This document shows positions 16,940-30,939 of a DNA stretch of 64,000 nt, in pieces. Source of the DNA: a virus. Under the pieces are notes generated by a model. It searched no databases, had not been told where the DNA came from, and saw only the letters and a list, made by a program, of their open reading frames with translations. Every line of letters starts with the position of its first letter. Positions within the stretch are counted from its first letter, which is position 1. Location: IMG/VR virus record IMGVR_UViG_3300032893_000735, positions 41,826 through 105,825 of that record, one strand, 5' to 3'. A program made the translations under genes and the position numbers.

Positions 16940-17431
16940 ATGGCACAGCAACCAAATTGGAAGAGCATCGGCACGGTCGGAGATGTTAACCCGTTGGACT
17001 ATGACGGCGGATACGTATATGAGGATACGACTGGCGTCTATCCTGCCGAATTGGAATATGTCCGGAATGTATCGGGCACAGAAGACGAAAACGGACCGTG
17101 GGAAGTCTATCGCTGGCCATTGGACCGCTACGAAATGGTCGACGCGGGCGGTGATACGCTGCTAGTGCCGTTTGGGTTTGGCTCTCGTTCAGATCTTCCT
17201 CATCCGCTGGCCAATTACGACGCGTGGTTTAATGACGACATTTCGCAAGTAGCATCCTATGTTGGATCCAACGTTGCGGAGATGCGTGCTTCGCTGTGCT
17301 CCGACAATCCGATGGAGCGGGCCTGGGTATATTTGGACCTTGCGACCTGCCACGGTTTCGAGAATTTCGACTCTTACCCTCTTGACTACTCGGACCGCGA
17401 AGAACTGGAGAAGCGGTACGCAACGTTATAG
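16940..17431 (+). CDS. Acidic hypothetical early protein
   Basis: AAGGAG RBS; first gene of the right arm. Confidence 0.8.
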   Translation: MAQQPNWKSIGTVGDVNPLDYDGGYVYEDTTGVYPAELEYVRNVSGTEDENGPWEVYRWPLDRYEMVDAGGDTLLVPFGFGSRSDLPHPLANYDAWFNDDISQVASYVGSNVAEMRASLCSDNPMERAWVYLDLATCHGFENFDSYPLDYSDREELEKRYATL

Positions 17432-17690
17432 AATCCGTCCAGATAATGGACAACTTACAGCGTAACCCATCCGCTATATGATGGGCGGGGAGTTGAGACA
17501 ATGCCTGATTTTTCTATCGGATGTTTGCTGGTTATTCTCGGCGTAGTGTTGTGTTTAGTGGCGCAGTTTCTCGCCGAATGGATCAATGATTAGCGTCCAT
17601 TTTTCAGACAACACCCTAGGGTAAAATCGCCAGTACTGCGCTGTTTTGCCCTACTGATCTGTACTCACGGCGCAATGGAGGAGCTAGAAA

Positions 17691-17894
17691 ATGAATTCCT
17701 ATGTGGTAATCTGCGGAAACATTGGAATGGTGTATTCCGGCGGAGTGTATCAATCCGCATTGGACGCGTTCACAGTCTACAAAAACAAGTCTATTCGGGG
17801 CGAGGGGCGCGCAAGCGGCGAAAGTGTTACCATGTTCCGGAATGGCGAAGTAATCAAGGAATTCATCGGAAGCACGGACGAAAACGAAGACTAA
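17691..17894 (+). CDS. Hypothetical early protein
   Basis: GGAGGAG RBS. Confidence 0.75.
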   Translation: MNSYVVICGNIGMVYSGGVYQSALDAFTVYKNKSIRGEGRASGESVTMFRNGEVIKEFIGSTDENED

Positions 17895-17896
17895 TC

Positions 17897-17955
17897 GCAG
17901 AGTGGCCGTCCGGAAAATGGACGGTTAATGCGGCGGTCCCGTCACAAGCCGGGAC
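17897..17955 (+). ncRNA. Twister ribozyme (circularly permuted, P1 closed as a hairpin)
   Basis: GCAGAGTG-[P1 hairpin]-TAATGCGGC-g-GTCCCG-TCACAAGC-CGGGAC; loop CAC can pair with GTG (pseudoknot). Confidence 0.8.
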
Positions 17956-17997
17956 AATCCAAACCGTATTCCGTGAAACTCACGGCGAAAGGGAAAC

Positions 17998-18516
17998 ATG
18001 TACGTCCCGAAGAATCTCAAGCTATGGACATTGCCGGATTCATACTTCGGCGAGCGCTGGACGGATTATTACGTGGTAATCGGTGCTCACCGGGACAGCG
18101 ACACAATTTCTCGGTGCAACTTCGATTGCATCCTTGCCGACTTGGAAAAACTGGAATCTGAAACGTGCAAGGAATGGGACAATGGGACGGATGACGAATC
18201 CGCCTTGCAGCACGTCACAGAGAATCATTGGGCCGTTGGATGGGTCGAATGGATCGGAATTCACAAGAATGCGCCCGATGAATTGTTGCGGCGAGCCGAT
18301 GAAATAATTGGCGAGCTGGAAGATTATCCGGTGTACAACGATGACAAGCTGTCAGAATTCGAAGATGAACAGGCTTGTGAAGCTTGGAAGTCTTACAGCT
18401 TGCGGGACCGAATCGAACTATGTGCGGAGTATGGAGTCTCGATTTTCGCCGCGCGGCGCGACTATCCGCCGTATGACGATCAAGGCGGAATTCAGCAAAC
18501 CTTACTAGGCTACTAA
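17998..18516 (+). CDS. Acidic hypothetical early protein
   Basis: AAGGG RBS; HWAVGWVEW motif. Confidence 0.8.
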   Translation: MYVPKNLKLWTLPDSYFGERWTDYYVVIGAHRDSDTISRCNFDCILADLEKLESETCKEWDNGTDDESALQHVTENHWAVGWVEWIGIHKNAPDELLRRADEIIGELEDYPVYNDDKLSEFEDEQACEAWKSYSLRDRIELCAEYGVSIFAARRDYPPYDDQGGIQQTLLGY

Positions 18517-18956
18517 TCCCATTTTCCGGACAAAACAATGAAACCAAATAATTGGATCAATCCTCGGGACGATTACGCGATCTGTAGAGCAAAACAGGTC
18601 GTCGGGTACCGGACCGGCTCCGCCCTGCAATCACACATTAACACTTGTCACGGCGGGCAAGTTTCCGATACTTGCCCCGCGTGCAAAGAGATTCAGCGCA
18701 AGATGGAGGCAGCAAAGTGACCATTCAGCAAGCCGCATGGCAAAAAAGAAGCGACGTTGTCGATGTAGACTGGAAGGAATTGTGGGAGCGGTACGACTAC
18801 CCGCATGCTACGATTCTCGGAGGCTGCCAGAACGTCTCGCACCGCACGGCGCAACCGTTCTGGAGCACACTCAAACGGGCGGCGGTTTTGACCGTGCTGT
18901 TTACGGCAGTGTTCGCCATTTTCACCGCAATTGTGTTTTAGTCCATTTTCTGGAAA

Positions 18957-19005
18957 GTTTTCCACAATTTTCAGGCTTGACACGGAAAACAATAACAACT
19001 AATCT
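18957..19005 (+). promoter_or_regulatory. Early promoter 2
   Basis: GTTTTCCACA...TTGACA-17-TAATCT, preceded by palindrome copy 18941. Confidence 0.7.
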
Positions 19006-19026
19006 TGAATCATTGGAGGGCAAGAC

Positions 19027-19341
19027 ATGGTCCTCGACCCGCGTTACAAAGCAATGGAGAACCCTACTATCCTACTCATGCACGCTATTGGATGGCAGGG
19101 CGGAACGGTTCACCAAGTGGCGGAACATACAGGCTTGCCCGTGCCCGATATTCTTTCCTTACACAAGCATGAGCCGTATTCCGGCTTGAATTCTTCGGCG
19201 TGCTCCGGGTGGACCAGTGTAAGAACGTGTTCTCTCGAATGGAACCAGGAACGGATCTTCCCGAAGTACCACGGCAACATTGACTTTTGGTCCGGGGTTT
19301 TACAGGCTCAGTTCAGCATCGAGGTAATGGGCCTATCCTAA
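19027..19341 (+). CDS. Hypothetical protein
   Basis: GGAGG RBS after the promoter. Confidence 0.7.
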   Translation: MVLDPRYKAMENPTILLMHAIGWQGGTVHQVAEHTGLPVPDILSLHKHEPYSGLNSSACSGWTSVRTCSLEWNQERIFPKYHGNIDFWSGVLQAQFSIEVMGLS

Positions 19342-19535
19342 CGGCACAATCCGAAAAATGGACAACTCACGGGGGGAAGGTGTACCATGAAAACAATTTT
19401 CTGGGATGTGTTTCATAATGGGCGCAAGATTGACAGCGTACCATATTCGGCGGACTGTGATAAGGAATATGTGCGCCGCTCACTGATTGAACACGACGGG
19501 TATAACCCCGACATCCTTGTCCGCAAGGCGCGATA

Positions 19536-19871
19536 ATGCGAATGTGGATGGTCGAACCCCGGCTAATGTGTCGCAAGCATCTGTTAGGTGAGCACGTAGA
19601 GCTGCACATGCTAGTCGGGAGCCTTCAGCGCGGAAAGTCAATAGCAGGTTTCTTGTCTAGGGGCCTGCTAGAACCTCAACACATACGAGAGCGTCACGCG
19701 ATTTTAGTTGCGGAAATGGAACGGCGGGGATACTCTCATAACAGTGCACTCGCGGAATACGAAACCGATATAACCGGCAAGGTGGACAGACAAAAGTCAT
19801 TGCAGGATCTTTCGGGAAGGTGTATCGAGTGTGCGGAACGGATCAAAGAACAAGGAGGCGCGGAAAAATGA
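19536..19871 (+). CDS. denV: Pyrimidine-dimer DNA glycosylase (T4 endonuclease V family)
   Basis: MRMW....LMCRKHLLGEHVELH...RH..LVAEMERRGY.H. Confidence 0.8.
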   Translation: MRMWMVEPRLMCRKHLLGEHVELHMLVGSLQRGKSIAGFLSRGLLEPQHIRERHAILVAEMERRGYSHNSALAEYETDITGKVDRQKSLQDLSGRCIECAERIKEQGGAEK

Positions 19872-20062
19872 TTTTCAGGACAAGGAAAGACGCGAAGTCG
19901 TGGGCGAAAGCGAATCTCCGAGGAAAATACTATCGCCTTGTGACATCTTACGTAAACGCAGAGCGCGGCTATGAGACGAAAATCGCTCTCCAGTCCCGCC
20001 CATTTAGCCGAATGAATGATCCGAAAGTTTACGCCTAACCGCTTAGCCGGAGCGTTATCCGG

Positions 20063-20118
20063 CCCCTCTACCGGGTTTAACGGTCCCGGCACTGATGAGC
20101 GCGAAAGGCGCGAAAGGG
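20063..20118 (+). ncRNA. Hammerhead ribozyme, type III
   Basis: CCC-TC, stem I (CCGGG/CCCGG), CTGATGA, GCGC-GAAAG-GCGC, GAAA, GGG. Confidence 0.85.
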
Positions 20119-20133
20119 AGAATCCAAAAAAAA

Positions 20134-20961
20134 ATGGACAGAACGACGAATCGAGTGGACGTACCGAAACGGGTTTTAGATCGCGTCTACGCATCGAAAC
20201 CTGAAGACTGGAAACAGCACGAAAACGGCGGCGGATGGGTGCATAAAACCGCTTATGTTGAAAAATCGGCTTATTTGCATCCTACGTCGATTGTGTCCGG
20301 CGATGCTCGGGTGTACGGCAATGCTCGGGTGTACGGCGATGCTTGGGTGTCCGGCAATGCTTGGGTGTACGGCAATGCTCGGGTGTACGGCGATGCTTGG
20401 GTGTCCGGCAATGCTCGGGTGTCCGGCAATGCTTGGGTGTCCGGCGATGCTCGGGTGTCCGGCGATGCTCGGGTGTCCGGCGATGCTTGGGTGTCCGGCA
20501 ATGCTCGGGTGTCCGGCAATGCTCAGGTGTCCGGCGATGCTTGGGTGTCCGGCAATGCTCGGGTGTACGGCAATGCTCAGGTGTCCGGCAATGCTCAGGT
20601 GTCCGGCGATGCTTGGGTGTCCGGCAATGCTCGGGTGTACGGCAATGCTCAGGTGTCCGGCGATGCTCGGGTGTACGGCAATGCTCGGGTGTCCGGCGAT
20701 GCTCGGGTGTCCGGCGATGCTTGGGTATTTTCGCCCCTCTACATCCAAGGCACAATGCACTCGCTCACCTTGTGCAGTTTTACGCAAATTGCTGTAGGGT
20801 GCCACGTCCATGATATAACCTATTGGATGAAGCATTACAAGGCAATAGGGCGGACCGAGGGGTACACGAAAGAACAGGTAAGCGAGTACAAACGACATTT
20901 GGATTATTTGGCCGCAGAGTCTGAGCGGCTACTGGCTGCAAAAATCGAAACGAAGGAATAA
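20134..20961 (+). CDS. Hexapeptide-repeat (V[SY]G[ND]A[RWQ]) left-handed beta-helix protein
   Basis: About 24 tandem hexapeptides; likely start ATG 20134 after GGGAG. Confidence 0.8.
   Translation: MDRTTNRVDVPKRVLDRVYASKPEDWKQHENGGGWVHKTAYVEKSAYLHPTSIVSGDARVYGNARVYGDAWVSGNAWVYGNARVYGDAWVSGNARVSGNAWVSGDARVSGDARVSGDAWVSGNARVSGNAQVSGDAWVSGNARVYGNAQVSGNAQVSGDAWVSGNARVYGNAQVSGDARVYGNARVSGDARVSGDAWVFSPLYIQGTMHSLTLCSFTQIAVGCHVHDITYWMKHYKAIGRTEGYTKEQVSEYKRHLDYLAAESERLLAAKIETKE
20293..20727 (+). repeat. 18-bp coding tandem repeat, about 24 units
   Basis: GTGT[CA]CGGC[AG]ATGCT[CT][GA]G units. Confidence 0.95.
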
Positions 20962-20989
20962 CCAACCGCCCGCCGGAGCGTATCCGGTA

Positions 20990-21041
20990 GGCTCTACAGG
21001 CAAGCCGTCACGGGGCAGAGCTGAGCATCTACTAATTGCCT
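20990..21041 (+). ncRNA. Minimal HDV-like ribozyme
   Basis: P1 GGCTCT/AGAGCT (G.U at +1), P2 AGGCAA/TTGCCT, P3 GCC/GGC, 7-nt L3, P1.1 TC/GA, J4/2 CTAA. Confidence 0.8.
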
Positions 21042-21052
21042 AAAGGAGAACC

Positions 21053-21580
21053 ATGAGTAAGTACACGGAACAGGCGGAAAAGTTTCTCAAGGACCACGGC
21101 CTGACATTCACGGCGCAGCTTATCGGGTCTGATTGCCCGAAGTTTTGCGAAGATGCAGCCAAAATGCGGGAAATGGACAACCACGAATTCCTATCAGAAG
21201 TAAACGAAGCGGGCGAAAGTTTTGCAGAATCCGCCCAAGAAATGTTAGACGCACTCCGCGCGGCGCAAGAATCCGAGGACAATGAGGCTGAGGATGAAGC
21301 GCGGCGGACAATTGACGCGCACCCGCTTTCGGTCCAGGTTCGTGGCGGATGGCATACTCCGGGTTGCGGCGGCAGAGTGGCGGAGGAATTCGAGATTCTG
21401 CTAGGCACCGGTGGCCCCGCATCCAGGATCATCGGGGAACTGAACGAATACGCCGAACCCGATTCGGCGCGGTTTGAATATCAGGATTGGTTTAAGCCGT
21501 GGACTCCAGCGCTCAACTTGTCTGAAGATCAGAATGAAGCGATCCTAGAATTTGCCCGCCAGTTCTATTACGGCGAATAA
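21053..21580 (+). CDS. Acidic hypothetical early protein
   Basis: AAGGAG RBS; FEILLGTGGPA..I.G motif. Confidence 0.8.
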   Translation: MSKYTEQAEKFLKDHGLTFTAQLIGSDCPKFCEDAAKMREMDNHEFLSEVNEAGESFAESAQEMLDALRAAQESEDNEAEDEARRTIDAHPLSVQVRGGWHTPGCGGRVAEEFEILLGTGGPASRIIGELNEYAEPDSARFEYQDWFKPWTPALNLSEDQNEAILEFARQFYYGE

Positions 21581-22829: not shown

Positions 22830-23993
22830 ATGGACGAGAAAGCAGGATCAATGAAAGGCTTCAAGGGTTTTGACAAGGATCTGAAGTGCCGAGGTTTCCA
22901 ATACGAACTTGGCAAAACATTCGCCCACGAAGGAACCGTAGACCTTTGTTCGCCCGGCTTCCATTTCTGCGAAAACCCGCTTGACGTGCTCTCTTATTAC
23001 GGGGTGGCAAACGGAAATCGTTTCGCGGAAGTAGAGGTCGATGGAGTAACTGACCAGAAGGAAAACGATTCAAAACGGGTCTGTTCTTCTCTTGCCATCG
23101 GTGCAGAAATTTCCCTCAAGAATCTAGTCGATCATTCGATTAAATTCATCTTCAACAAAACCACAAACCCCACCAGTGGCGACTACGCGCACTCGGCCAC
23201 CAGCGGCGACTACGCGCACTCGGCCACCAGCGGCAACAACGCGCACTCGGCCACCAGTGGCGACTGCGCGCCCTCGGCCACCAGTGGCGACTGCGCGCGC
23301 TCGGCCACCAGCGGCAACAACGCGCATTCGGCCACCAGCGGCGACTACGCGCACTCGGCCACCAGCGGCGTCTACGCGCACTCGGCCACCAGCGGCAACT
23401 ACGCGCACTCGGCCACCAGCGGCAACTACGCGCACTCGGCCACCAGCGGCGACTACGCGCACTCGGCCACCAGCGGCAACAACGCGCACTCGGCCACCAG
23501 CGGCGTCTACGCGCACTCGGCCACCAGCGGCATCTACGCGCGCTCGGCCACCAGCGGCAACTACGCGCACTCGGCCACCAGCGGCGACTACGCGCACTCG
23601 GCCACCAGCGGCAACAACGCGCATTCGGCCACCAGCGGCGACTACGCGCACTCGGCCACCAGCGGCAACAACGCGCACTCGGCCACCAGCGGCATCTACG
23701 CGCGCTCGGCCACCAGCGGCAACTACGCGCACTCGGCCACCAGCGGCGACTACGCGCATTCGGCCACCAGCGGCGACTACGCGCGCTCGTCTGCTATGGG
23801 GGGAAATTCAATAGCCGCCGCTATTGGTAGAAACGGCGCAGCAAAGGCATCCGTAGGAAACTGGATCGTTCTGGCGGAATACAAGGACAACGGAGAGATT
23901 GTATCCGTGAAAATGGCAAAAGTGGACGGCGAGAAGATCAAGGCCGACACTTTTTACCAACTCAAAAACGGGGAGTTTACGGAAGCTGAATGA
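22830..23993 (+). CDS. DUF7666-like protein with 9-residue (SATSGxYAH) repeats
   Basis: KGFDKDLKCRGFQYE...GFHFCENPLDV N-terminus; VDGEKIKADTFY C-terminus. Confidence 0.85.
   Translation: MDEKAGSMKGFKGFDKDLKCRGFQYELGKTFAHEGTVDLCSPGFHFCENPLDVLSYYGVANGNRFAEVEVDGVTDQKENDSKRVCSSLAIGAEISLKNLVDHSIKFIFNKTTNPTSGDYAHSATSGDYAHSATSGNNAHSATSGDCAPSATSGDCARSATSGNNAHSATSGDYAHSATSGVYAHSATSGNYAHSATSGNYAHSATSGDYAHSATSGNNAHSATSGVYAHSATSGIYARSATSGNYAHSATSGDYAHSATSGNNAHSATSGDYAHSATSGNNAHSATSGIYARSATSGNYAHSATSGDYAHSATSGDYARSSAMGGNSIAAAIGRNGAAKASVGNWIVLAEYKDNGEIVSVKMAKVDGEKIKADTFYQLKNGEFTEAE
23171..23789 (+). repeat. 27-bp coding tandem repeat, about 23 units
   Basis: CCACCAGCGGCxxCTACGCGCACTCGG units. Confidence 0.95.
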
Positions 23994-25081
23994 CCAATCT
24001 AACCAAACGCGGAAACGTGTACCATTATCAATCCACAGTCGGCGGGAATCGCCTTCGCTGTTCGTTGGGCGTCTCTGACCCGAAGTCCGCGTCTCGGCTG
24101 GAGAACCGCGTCACCTTTGCTCTGGCGGACGGGCCAAAGTCCGCTATCTGGCCCGAACTGAAAGCGGCGCTCCCGAAGACCGGTTTTGATATTTTAACCA
24201 AAAACTTGAACCTTCCGGCGGATTCTCCTGACCTGCTAGAGTTTGAGCAATCGTTTTTAAAGGATCTGTCCCGCCGAGCGGACCTAAGCGACATCGCCGC
24301 TTCCACGGCAGAAATGTATGGGCGGATTTGCGGTACTTTTTTTGATCGGATGGTCGAGATTGGCGTCCAGAAAATTGACGAACTCACGGCGCAAACGATG
24401 GCCGATTACTTTGTCTGGCGGAAGAAATCTATACTGGCCAAAAACCCGGACAAAGGTGCTAGGGGTCTCGAAACCGAAAGCCGCATCTTGAAAGAGATGT
24501 TCAACTTCGCGGAGAAATCCGGCCTACCAGCACCCCAGTTTGACCCGTACAAGTCGCCGGTCGCGGCGGACGAACCTGATCCGTTTTCGGCGGACGATCT
24601 GGAAAAAATGAATAGTGTAGCCGAAGAAACCGAACGACTTGTCTACTTGATTTTCCGATGGACAGGTCTTCGCCGGTCGGACGTAGCGGATCTAACCTGG
24701 GGCGCAATCGAATGGGGGAAGTCGGTTCTGTCCTGTGTTACCAAGAAGCGGAAAGTGATGGTTCATGTTCCGATGGCTCCAGTTTTGGTCGATGCGCTAA
24801 AGGATGTGTACTCGGGTCAACCCGCGTCCGAAAATATTTTGGTCGGACTCACCAAAAACATGCTATACTCAATCATCAAGGGTTTGGGGGAGAAGGCTGG
24901 AGTTGAGAACTGCCACCCCCATAGGTTCCGCCACACGTTCGCTATTAACATTTTGGAGCGCGGCGGATCGATCTATGACGTGGCTAAGATCCTGGGCAAC
25001 CAAACCAGCACCGTAGAGAAATACTACGGGAAATTCACTGATCAGGCGCAGGAACGAGTACGGACAATGTTGTCCAAATAA
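23990..25081 (+). CDS. int: Tyrosine recombinase/integrase
   Basis: TGLRRSD, TKK, HPHRFRHTFA, LGN...YY. Confidence 0.9.
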   Translation: MTNLTKRGNVYHYQSTVGGNRLRCSLGVSDPKSASRLENRVTFALADGPKSAIWPELKAALPKTGFDILTKNLNLPADSPDLLEFEQSFLKDLSRRADLSDIAASTAEMYGRICGTFFDRMVEIGVQKIDELTAQTMADYFVWRKKSILAKNPDKGARGLETESRILKEMFNFAEKSGLPAPQFDPYKSPVAADEPDPFSADDLEKMNSVAEETERLVYLIFRWTGLRRSDVADLTWGAIEWGKSVLSCVTKKRKVMVHVPMAPVLVDALKDVYSGQPASENILVGLTKNMLYSIIKGLGEKAGVENCHPHRFRHTFAINILERGGSIYDVAKILGNQTSTVEKYYGKFTDQAQERVRTMLSK

Positions 25082-29706: not shown

Positions 29707-29997
29707 TCCAGAAAATGGCCGGAATTTGTCGGAACCGAAGACTGGATAGACAAAAACGGGGTTGTGTTTTGCTCGGAAGAGTGCTATTCTGAGCTTCACC
29801 AGAGGGAGGAAGACAATGGCTAATATTCAGCAGGCGGCGAAGTGGCTTCGAGAAGGGAAGAGGGTCCGAAGGCCCGATTGGTTTGACGGATTTTATCTTA
29901 TTGTAGGTGCCGATGGGTGCGTGCAAACCGCGTATGAAAACCCTTTTGAGGATTTGGAAGTAGAAGATCTTCTCGCCGAGGATTGGGAGGAACACAC

Positions 29998-30939
29998 GTG
30001 GGTCAACTAGCTTTGGATCTCAGGCCCGACCGTTTAGAGGACGTTCTGGGGAACGAGTCTACGAAAAAGGCTCTACAGTCCTTCATAGACAAGGATTCAT
30101 TCCCTAATGTCTTCTTGTTCATCGGACCCCCCGGCTGTGGCAAGACTACCTTAGCTCAGATCGTAGCTGAAACCGTTGCTGGGGAAGGCGGAAGCATCCA
30201 CGAGGTCAATGGGTCCGCTCAAAATAAAGTTGAGGACGCCAGAGAACTTTCCGAAATCGCCGCTAGCTGTCCGTTTAACGGACGGCGCAGGGTGTTCATT
30301 CTAAACGAGTTCCACCAATTTACCGGCCCAGCCCAGGAATGTCTGAAAGACCCGATGGAGAAAACGCCTTCGGTTTGGGTCATCACGACGGACATGCCTG
30401 AAAAAATCAGCCCAGCCATCAAGTCCAGGGCGTCGGCAGCTACCTTCGAGCTAAAGCCTCTCGCCCGAAAAGAAATCCGAACCCTAATCAACCGGGCAGC
30501 AGGAGAAGTTCTACCAGCCCTCCAGATCGACGAGATCATCAAGGTTCTGGAACAAAGAAACATCGGGGCACCTCGGGAAATCTTGGGGGTCGTGGATCAG
30601 ATTTTGGCGGGGGTTCCGCTCGAACAAGCCATCCACGGTTCCGAACACGAGCCGCTTTACCGAGACGTGGCTTCTGCCGTTTTGTCCGGAAACTGGACTA
30701 AGACTGCGAACCTGCTAAAGCAGATTCCGACTCCTGATTTTCAGGCGATGGTAAGTGTGGTTTCTGCTAAGCTAAGCTGGGCACTTTTGGACGAAGGATT
30801 CGGCACGAGGGCAGATGCTTTGTCGGCATGTCTGGTCGGAATGGCTGGGGCTACGTACCAAGCTGGAGTGGCTTACGGTAGCTTGAGAGCATTGCTATAC
30901 AAGGCTTGCCGAGCGATTCAGAAAGGAGAAAACCGATGA
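29998..30939 (+). CDS. Clamp loader subunit (DnaX/RFC-like AAA+)
   Basis: LRPDRLEDVLG, GPPGCGKTT, ILNEFH, IKSR. Confidence 0.88.
   Translation: MGQLALDLRPDRLEDVLGNESTKKALQSFIDKDSFPNVFLFIGPPGCGKTTLAQIVAETVAGEGGSIHEVNGSAQNKVEDARELSEIAASCPFNGRRRVFILNEFHQFTGPAQECLKDPMEKTPSVWVITTDMPEKISPAIKSRASAATFELKPLARKEIRTLINRAAGEVLPALQIDEIIKVLEQRNIGAPREILGVVDQILAGVPLEQAIHGSEHEPLYRDVASAVLSGNWTKTANLLKQIPTPDFQAMVSVVSAKLSWALLDEGFGTRADALSACLVGMAGATYQAGVAYGSLRALLYKACRAIQKGENR

Follow-up and report, generated by a model that had tools for sequence, protein, structure and literature searches.

The locus examined here raises the question of what a hammerhead ribozyme candidate does in the short gap ahead of a phage gene. 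The initial annotation had described a type III hammerhead whose stem III sequesters the ribosome-binding site of the downstream gene, and had proposed that cleavage releases this site, giving a self-activating translation switch. We examined the structure, the relatives and the surroundings of the candidate, and we suggest a different reading, in which the ribozyme processes a multi-gene RNA next to a pseudoknot-hairpin module.

Genomic setting

The window, that is, the whole stretch of DNA analysed, comprises 64,000 nt and corresponds to bases 41826-105825 of one 105.8-kb viral contig from a wetland metagenome. The contig has a completeness of 98% (CheckV) and represents an uncultured phage of about 106 kb carrying 22 tRNA genes, all of them on the minus strand. 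A run of small genes, every one on the plus strand, extends from 16940 to 21580, and the hammerhead candidate occupies a 95-nt intergenic gap on the coding strand, 25 nt past the stop of a 56-codon ORF and 15 nt ahead of ATG 20134.

19868..20038, plus strand: 56-codon ORF, with AAGGAGG 9 nt before its ATG
20064..20118, plus strand: type III hammerhead ribozyme candidate, identified from the sequence, the minimum-energy fold, a descriptor compared with shuffles and a stem I/core pattern
20134..20961, plus strand: gene for a YdcK-type beta-solenoid repeat protein of 275 aa (Pfam PF18836 and PF04519; phrog_7964)

The start of the 56-codon ORF overlaps the stop of a Pyr_excise (denV-like) gene at 19536-19871. 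Another ATG in frame with the YdcK gene, at 20095, falls within the core of the ribozyme and is without a ribosome site. Promoter-like and terminator-like matches across the region were at the level expected by chance, and none of them was found on the plus strand within 19540-21100. In a low-depth relative from the source metagenome, 19842 is connected straight to 20046 and the 56-codon ORF is left out, and the YdcK 3' region (20712-20981) is involved in loose-end joins. Shortly past the ribozyme-punctuated block, a DUF7666 protein gene (22830-23993) is followed by a tyrosine-integrase-family gene (23990-25081). Upstream of the window, the contig also contains a group I intron on the minus strand (L002:9869-10050, genome bases 29869-30050; Rfam RF00028, 61 bits).

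Structure of the hammerhead candidate

The structural features listed by the initial annotation were all found in the sequence. The core is intact, with CUGAUGA at 20092-20098 and GAAA at 20112-20115, and it agrees with the consensus C3 U4 G5 A6 N7 G8 A9, G12 A13 A14 and the A15.1-U16.1 pair (A20115-U20067). The CUC cleavage triplet is C20066-U20067-C20068, with the predicted cut between C20068 and U20069, and it follows the N-U-H rule, in which H17 is not G (C17 is C20068). Stem I is formed by U20069-G20075 and C20085-A20091, so that its hairpin spans 20069-20091 with a 9-nt loop, UUUAACGGU, and it contains the one reported A.C mismatch (A20070.C20090) beside six pairs. Stem II consists of four G-C pairs between G20099-C20102 and G20108-C20111, including G10.1-C11.1, and carries the loop GAAAG; its hairpin spans 20099-20111, and the G-C helix abuts A9 and G12 exactly. 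Stem III had been given as 3-4 bp, and we counted four pairs between C20064-U20067 and A20115-G20118, including A15.1-U16.1. Stems I and II are capped by loops and stem III is left open, which is the layout of a type III hammerhead.

The three-way junction is the minimum-energy fold of 20055-20140 in ViennaRNA, and the stability of this fold does not exceed that of shuffled sequences (z = -0.05). When we searched with a loose type III descriptor, the 105.8-kb genome gave one match compared with 0.1 per dinucleotide shuffle, and the same descriptor applied to 2.26 Mb of other loci yielded about four distinct matches of a chance-like kind. A strict descriptor, requiring compact loops, at least six pairs in stem I and at least four in stems II and III, gave one match in the genome and none in 600 shuffles, a figure that is optimistic because the thresholds were fixed post hoc at the candidate's own values. 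A tertiary contact between stems I and II is needed for fast hammerhead cleavage at cellular Mg2+. No clear contact between loop I and loop II is visible in the candidate, the best one being UUU (20076-78) with AAA (20104-06).

Relatives of the hammerhead candidate

The Rfam model Hammerhead_3 (RF00008) gave no match at E<=10 genome-wide, and Hammerhead_II (RF02276) scored 20.3 bits against a threshold of 37 bits, with E = 0.2 (4227 families, 801 nt); these thresholds are curated limits for detection and do not define the structure. The Hammerhead_II score stems from stem I and the core, aligned in type II order, and in this alignment the upstream CCGAAA, inside the preceding ORF, is taken as GAAA. 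We rejected this type II reading because stem II would then have one pair and stem III two; closure in the type III form is far better.

To find relatives we used a stem I and core pattern (CTACCGGG, 4-16 nt, CCCGGNACTGATGAG) in IMG/VR. The pattern retrieved 25 loci, and 25 of 25 were clean type II hammerheads with a pseudoknot between loop I and the 3' tail; in all of them GAAAGGAG and an ATG come about 10-20 nt downstream. These results indicate that the stem I and core half of the candidate is homologous to real phage hammerheads. The position of A20070.C20090 is an A-U pair in the type II relatives (stem form U-A/A-U) and a G-C pair in the Rfam consensus (U-A/G-C), and the mismatch is what a one-step intermediate between these two forms would resemble. 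A pseudo-closure into the type III shape was absent from all 25 type II loci. Contigs L084-L108 of IMG/VR, mostly of about 13 kb, hold type II hammerheads that are nearly identical to one another and form a family with the loop-I/3'-tail pseudoknot, each near a contig end and 10-20 nt ahead of GAAAGGAG and ATG. In addition, two related viral contigs carry a tandem arrangement of two hammerhead cores about 60 nt apart (L110:4200-4301 and L126:5560-5656).

A homologue in the type III form was found neither in IMG/VR, nor in the metagenome and genome scans, nor upstream of YdcK relatives, and stems II and III are therefore without support from covariation. There was no upstream hammerhead at 80 YdcK-gene loci, and a type III descriptor scan gave no hammerhead at 12 denV-gene loci. 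The hammerheads matched by a stem II and core pattern were all of type I or type III and belonged to other lineages, and a search with the 175-aa downstream protein gave no relatives. The motif, its non-random occurrence and its context are established by these observations, and we consider it highly probable from the sequence features that the gap element is a genuine, active hammerhead.

Neighbouring ribozymes

The hammerhead candidate is one of three ribozymes in the run of plus-strand genes, and the other two are listed below.

17896..17953, plus strand: twister-P5 ribozyme (Rfam RF02684, 57.3 bits against a threshold of 37.6 bits)
20990..21041, plus strand: minimal HDV-like ribozyme candidate without P4, identified with our own descriptor and by a homologue in contig L205

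The twister-P5 ribozyme lies in a gene gap two junctions (2.1 kb) upstream of the hammerhead, 1 nt past a stop and 44 nt before the next start. The HDV-like candidate lies 870 nt downstream of the hammerhead, in the gap after the YdcK gene. It is composed of P1 (GGCUCU/AGAGCU, with a G1.U pair), P2 (AGGCAA/UUGCCU) and P3 (GCC/GGC), its J4/2 is C21032-UAA (C-U-A-A before P2'), and the predicted cut is 5' of G20990. It matches none of the Rfam HDV models, and our descriptor gave two further chance-like matches elsewhere in the genome. Contig L205 holds two copies of the homologue (L205:5105-5215:- and L205:1529-1639:-), in which P1 changes from GGCUCU to GGCCAC, P2 from AGGCAA to GGGUAU and P3 from GCC to CCC, each with a matching change in the partner strand. 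The nested P1/P2/P3, the G1.U pair, the C-N-A-A and the covarying helices are thus those of an HDV-like ribozyme, as judged from just two distinct sequences. AAGGAG starts 1 nt after P2' in the window, and GAGGAG directly follows the homologue in L205. Three ribozyme classes lie within 3.2 kb beside small genes whose function is not known. Each of the three takes up a single gap between a stop and the next start, and its 3' end reaches, or stops just short of, the ribosome site that follows.

Overlap with the ribosome-binding site

The translation switch proposed by the initial annotation depends on one short motif.

20116..20120, plus strand: Shine-Dalgarno-like GGGAG, the only such motif before ATG 20134

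G20116-G20118 of this sole motif do form the 3' strand of stem III, so the sequestering described in the initial annotation is right as to position; a strong masking of the site is not supported. The stem III duplex has an energy of -5.6 kcal/mol, and the three Gs were predicted to be unpaired with a probability of about 0.3-0.5 in the uncleaved and 0.3-0.9 in the cleaved RNA, a value that varied more with the modelled length of the flanks than with cleavage. These predictions do not show a ribosome site that is stably masked until cleavage and accessible thereafter. The assignment of GGGAG as the Shine-Dalgarno sequence of ATG 20134 is favoured by the absence of any other such motif before this ATG, and is made less certain by its spacing: GGGAG ends 13 nt before the ATG, which is unusual in a genome where 54 of the 61 strong Shine-Dalgarno matches are located at 3-8 nt and the mode is 4-5 nt. 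Moreover, AUG 20134 is predicted to lie in a separate small hairpin, UCCA-A8-UGGA (20123-20138), which pairs the U and G of the start codon and is left unaffected by cleavage.

Related ribozymes have the ribosome site just outside their fold. This is the case for the 25 type II hammerheads, for a type III hammerhead in L117, which has AAGGGGA directly 3', and for the HDV-like ribozymes in the window and in L205, so that the 3-nt overlap seen here looks like compaction. We also found no sensor domain, and cleavage should therefore be constitutive. Because there is no hint of conditional cleavage, "switch" is the wrong word even if release of the site aids translation. Considering also the weak stem III, the near-constant predicted accessibility and the 13-nt spacing, we find the self-activating translation switch only partly supported. 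The overlap between stem III and GGGAG looks incidental, a by-product of packing that contributes little.

A pseudoknot-hairpin module next to the ribozymes

The sequence directly upstream of the hammerhead contains a second RNA element, of which the window has two copies.

20040..20063, plus strand: pseudoknot-hairpin module, copy 1 (covariance model R1, 30.6 bits)
20967..20988, plus strand: pseudoknot-hairpin module, copy 2 (covariance model R1, 40.2 bits)

The module is an H-type pseudoknot of 22-24 nt with the order CGC, 2-3 nt, GCCGG, AGCGU(U)AU and CCGGC, in which CGC pairs with GCG of the loop. In copy 1, C20040-U20043 pair with the loop A20051-G20054, and the stem is formed by G20046-G20050 with C20059-C20063; this copy abuts stem III of the hammerhead. 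Copy 2 is located 5 nt past the YdcK stop, and 1 nt separates it from the HDV-like cleavage site that follows. Both copies have the 5-bp stem GCCGG/CCGGC, a 7-8-nt loop and the CGC/GCG pairing, and the hairpin (20046-20063 and 20972-20988) occurs exactly twice in the phage genome.

When we searched IMG/VR with the exact hairpin sequence, more than 119 stretches were matched, about half of which are coding-sequence coincidences, and at least 34 distinct copies share flanks that were not forced by the search, chiefly the upstream CGC. At least 35 other, unrelated viral contigs carry the module in intergenic positions, often in arrays with copies 150-500 nt apart, and model R1 detected 1-5 clustered copies in 36 of 36 records searched, weaker divergent copies included. 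Among the divergent copies, one has CGU with ACG and one has AGC with GCU, which supports the CGC-GCG pairing, and others show a G-C stem pair changed to A-U or extra C-G or A-U pairs inserted. On the R1 alignment the pseudoknot helix is 99% paired, with double changes in two of its three pairs and one-sided changes in none; since R1 did not include the pseudoknot, the alignment was not fitted to it. Double changes are also present in two stem pairs, and none of 500 shuffles reached the observed values, with single sequences carrying the covariation. The structure of the module is likewise established here.

We also placed 43 distinct copies relative to genes. An ORF ends upstream of 30 of them, in most cases 0-10 nt away, an ORF starts downstream of 38, in most cases 12-60 nt away, and all 43 are co-oriented with the flanking ORFs. 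No family in Rfam 15 matches any copy of the module, and a literature search by its sequence returned primers only; the module is neither a promoter nor a terminator. In four cases, two in the window and two in L205, the module lies 1-5 nt upstream of a site cut by a ribozyme, two classes of ribozyme being represented, and most copies have no ribozyme downstream. Twister-P5 ribozymes above threshold were present in 5 of the 36 module-bearing records and in 0 of 41 control phage records. The five records, namely the present phage and G012, G016, G019 and G035, represent four lineages, and this association is suggestive only. The combination of module and hammerhead was also sought directly. A pattern for the junction between the module and stem I gave at least 120 chance matches in metagenomes, none with the core among the matches listed, and this pattern is too weak for a collection of that size; a pattern for the module and core gave only chance or unrelated matches in viral and genome contigs. 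Neither the module nor the hammerhead accompanies the YdcK relatives that are closest in N-terminal sequence (68-74% identity). The module is more unusual than the hammerhead itself, and both the module and its fusion to two classes of ribozyme deserve follow-up.

The module and the hammerhead may also interfere with each other. A competing 16-bp hairpin at 20046-20090 is predicted to be about 2 kcal/mol more stable than the module plus the hammerhead when the pseudoknot is ignored, and it would exclude both the module and stem I. It arises from complementarity between CGUUA of the module loop (20053-57) and UAACG of loop I (20078-82), together with the CCGG stems. The same complementarity could be read as a kissing contact that serves as the tertiary contact of the ribozyme. 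In the active fold, however, stem I is directed away from stem III, and the module loop bases concerned are occupied by the pseudoknot; for these two reasons we set the contact aside.

Proposed function and alternative explanations

Clustering of ribozymes has been described in bacteria and phages, and processing of multi-gene transcripts has been proposed (PMC3088659; PMC6765202). This proposal has been made for bacterial hammerheads and twisters, no function having been proven (PMC3088659; PMC6765202). Based on the observations above, we think it somewhat probable that the candidate is a genuine type III hammerhead which, as one of three gap ribozymes, processes a multi-gene plus-strand RNA constitutively and insulates the YdcK cistron. 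From the structure and the context we infer both cleavage and the fates of its two products. The hammerhead would fold co-transcriptionally and cut between C20068 and U20069 without a signal. The 5' fragment would leave because stem III has just 4 bp, and this release would make the cut effectively irreversible. The upstream RNA would then end with the module (20040-20063) and CCCUC carrying a 2',3'-cyclic phosphate, and the cut by the HDV-like ribozyme would leave a tail of about 1-2 nt after the module in the window and of 1 nt in L205. An upstream end capped by the module should resist 3' exonucleases and polyadenylation; this protective role is purely what we infer from established RNA decay biology. 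The YdcK mRNA, on the other side, would start with a 5'-OH, and its ribosome-binding region would come directly after stems I and II in their folded form. The ribozyme would thereby uncouple the YdcK cistron from its neighbours and insulate it in the manner of RiboJ, an element that raises the expression of insulated genes (PMC6206723).

More tentatively, we suggest that the module represents a widespread RNA element of phages, so far undescribed, which would mark and protect the 3' ends of cistron-sized RNAs, and that it possibly becomes a "cut-and-cap" device when fused to a ribozyme. In such a device, the ribozyme would make an end 1-5 nt after the pseudoknot, the pseudoknot and the cyclic phosphate would shield the upstream RNA, and the downstream gene would gain a clean, structured 5' leader. 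The hammerhead alone is one more case of a known class, and its value lies in the context. If cut-and-cap holds true, it would give the intergenic ribozymes of phages a concrete, testable function, which has been a question since 2011, and the arrangement recasts the purpose of these ribozymes as experiments on RNA ends and half-lives. The module is also a compact natural RNA part that may serve as an insulator or stabiliser.

Other explanations need to be weighed against constitutive processing. If stem III masked the Shine-Dalgarno sequence, translation of YdcK would be gated by cleavage, self-cleavage would be needed, and only processed RNA would be translated. Such a mechanism is possible, since engineered hammerhead aptazymes in which cleavage unmasks a Shine-Dalgarno sequence do work in bacteria (PMC5367253). 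It would also agree with the location of GGG of the sole Shine-Dalgarno-like motif in stem III and with a 5' fragment held by 4 bp, which should dissociate and leave GGG single-stranded. However, the helix is weak and the predicted accessibility is nearly unchanged on cleavage, the 13-nt spacing is atypical, the AUG is in a hairpin that cleavage does not touch, related ribozymes hold the ribosome site outside the fold, and without a sensor domain nothing is switched. We therefore regard gating of translation by cleavage as unlikely. It is also conceivable that the element is inactive, being either a chance look-alike or a type II remnant closed into the type III shape, or that its fold is too unstable or misfolded in vivo. 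Scores under the Rfam thresholds, no conservation evidence for the type III form, the A.C mismatch in stem I, the short stem III, the predicted competing hairpin and the z value near 0 all point in this direction, and inactive hammerhead-like RNAs, one of them from a Xanthomonas phage, were listed by Perreault et al. (PMC3088659). A relic or look-alike nevertheless appears quite unlikely to us, because the core is perfect with GAAA in place, the G-C stem II abuts A9 and G12, and the nucleotides immediately 5' of the UC site find complementary partners that make a 4-bp stem III. In addition, pseudo-closure was seen in 0 of 25 type II loci and strict matches in none of the 600 shuffles, and the element has a sense-strand gene-gap position between two other ribozymes.

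The remaining explanation concerns DNA. The module and the ribozyme could mark a gene-cassette boundary and act as a DNA homology patch for duplicating, inserting and exchanging small accessory genes, RNA cleavage being secondary or just making the cassette of hammerhead and YdcK self-contained. This cassette is bracketed by an imperfect direct repeat of about 38 nt (UAACC...module...CUCUAC), and the closest YdcK homologues are without the module and the hammerhead. In the source metagenome, the unitig 20046-20332 has a depth of 79 compared with 44-52 in the flanks (about 1.7x), and loose assembly ends join the YdcK 3' end to the module and hammerhead. The raised depth and the loose ends suggest that a tandem duplication or variant arrangement probably exists, which the assembly may have collapsed. 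Since sequence identity begins or ends at the module in contigs L160, L211, L194 and L239, the module may also act as a recombination patch. On the contrary, the module helices covary as RNA (or single-strand) structure, the module is always co-oriented with the flanking genes, and homology-driven shuffling leaves the intact catalytic cores unexplained. As the main account of the locus, a cassette boundary is unlikely in our view; it is compatible with an RNA-structure reading, and the two are not exclusive.

Comparison with known systems

The candidate shares with the intergenic hammerheads of phages and prophages (PMC3088659; RF02276, RF00008) the core, the three-helix junction and the NUH site, and likewise has a sense-strand intergenic position in a multi-gene unit near other ribozymes. 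Its stem I and core are nearly identical to those of type II phage hammerheads. In the candidate, however, stem II carries a loop and the open helix is stem III, while the 25 relatives are all type II with a loop-I/tail pseudoknot that the candidate lacks. Unlike known phage hammerheads, it scores below the Rfam thresholds, shares its 4-bp stem III with a Shine-Dalgarno-like motif and is fused at its 5' side to a pseudoknot module. Co-location of ribozyme classes was reportedly the basis on which pistol, hatchet and twister-sister were discovered in 2015. The twister, hammerhead and HDV-like ribozymes within 3.2 kb in the window resemble the co-located classes described in bacteria and phages (PMC6765202), but here each has a gap of its own, which it fills as far as the next ribosome site, and the module stands ahead of two of them.

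Engineered aptazymes (PMC5367253) and RiboJ (PMC6206723) likewise have their hammerhead within the 5' leader of a bacterial RNA, immediately upstream of the ribosome site. In these engineered devices, as in the candidate, cleavage removes the upstream context, and the ribosome site is partly in a ribozyme helix (PMC5367253; PMC6206723). The engineered masks have longer helices and a ligand-sensing domain, whereas the candidate has three G-C pairs and no sensor. RiboJ carries its extra hairpin 3' of the ribozyme, whereas the extra module of the candidate is 5'.

Minimal HDV-like ribozymes lacking P4 were reportedly described by Riccitelli, Delwart and Luptak in 2014. The element at 20990-21041 has the same nested double pseudoknot, G1.U pair, 3-bp P3 and C-N-A-A, again with no P4; it differs from them in matching no Rfam HDV model and in being preceded by the pseudoknot module. 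As for the module itself, REP hairpins protect upstream mRNA, and PeSL elements are cassette-flanking stem-loops of T4-type phages. Like these, the module is a short conserved intergenic structure found in arrays of small phage genes and at mosaic junctions. Unlike these, it is an H-type pseudoknot of 22-24 nt, is near-invariant across unrelated contigs, and is sometimes fused to a ribozyme.
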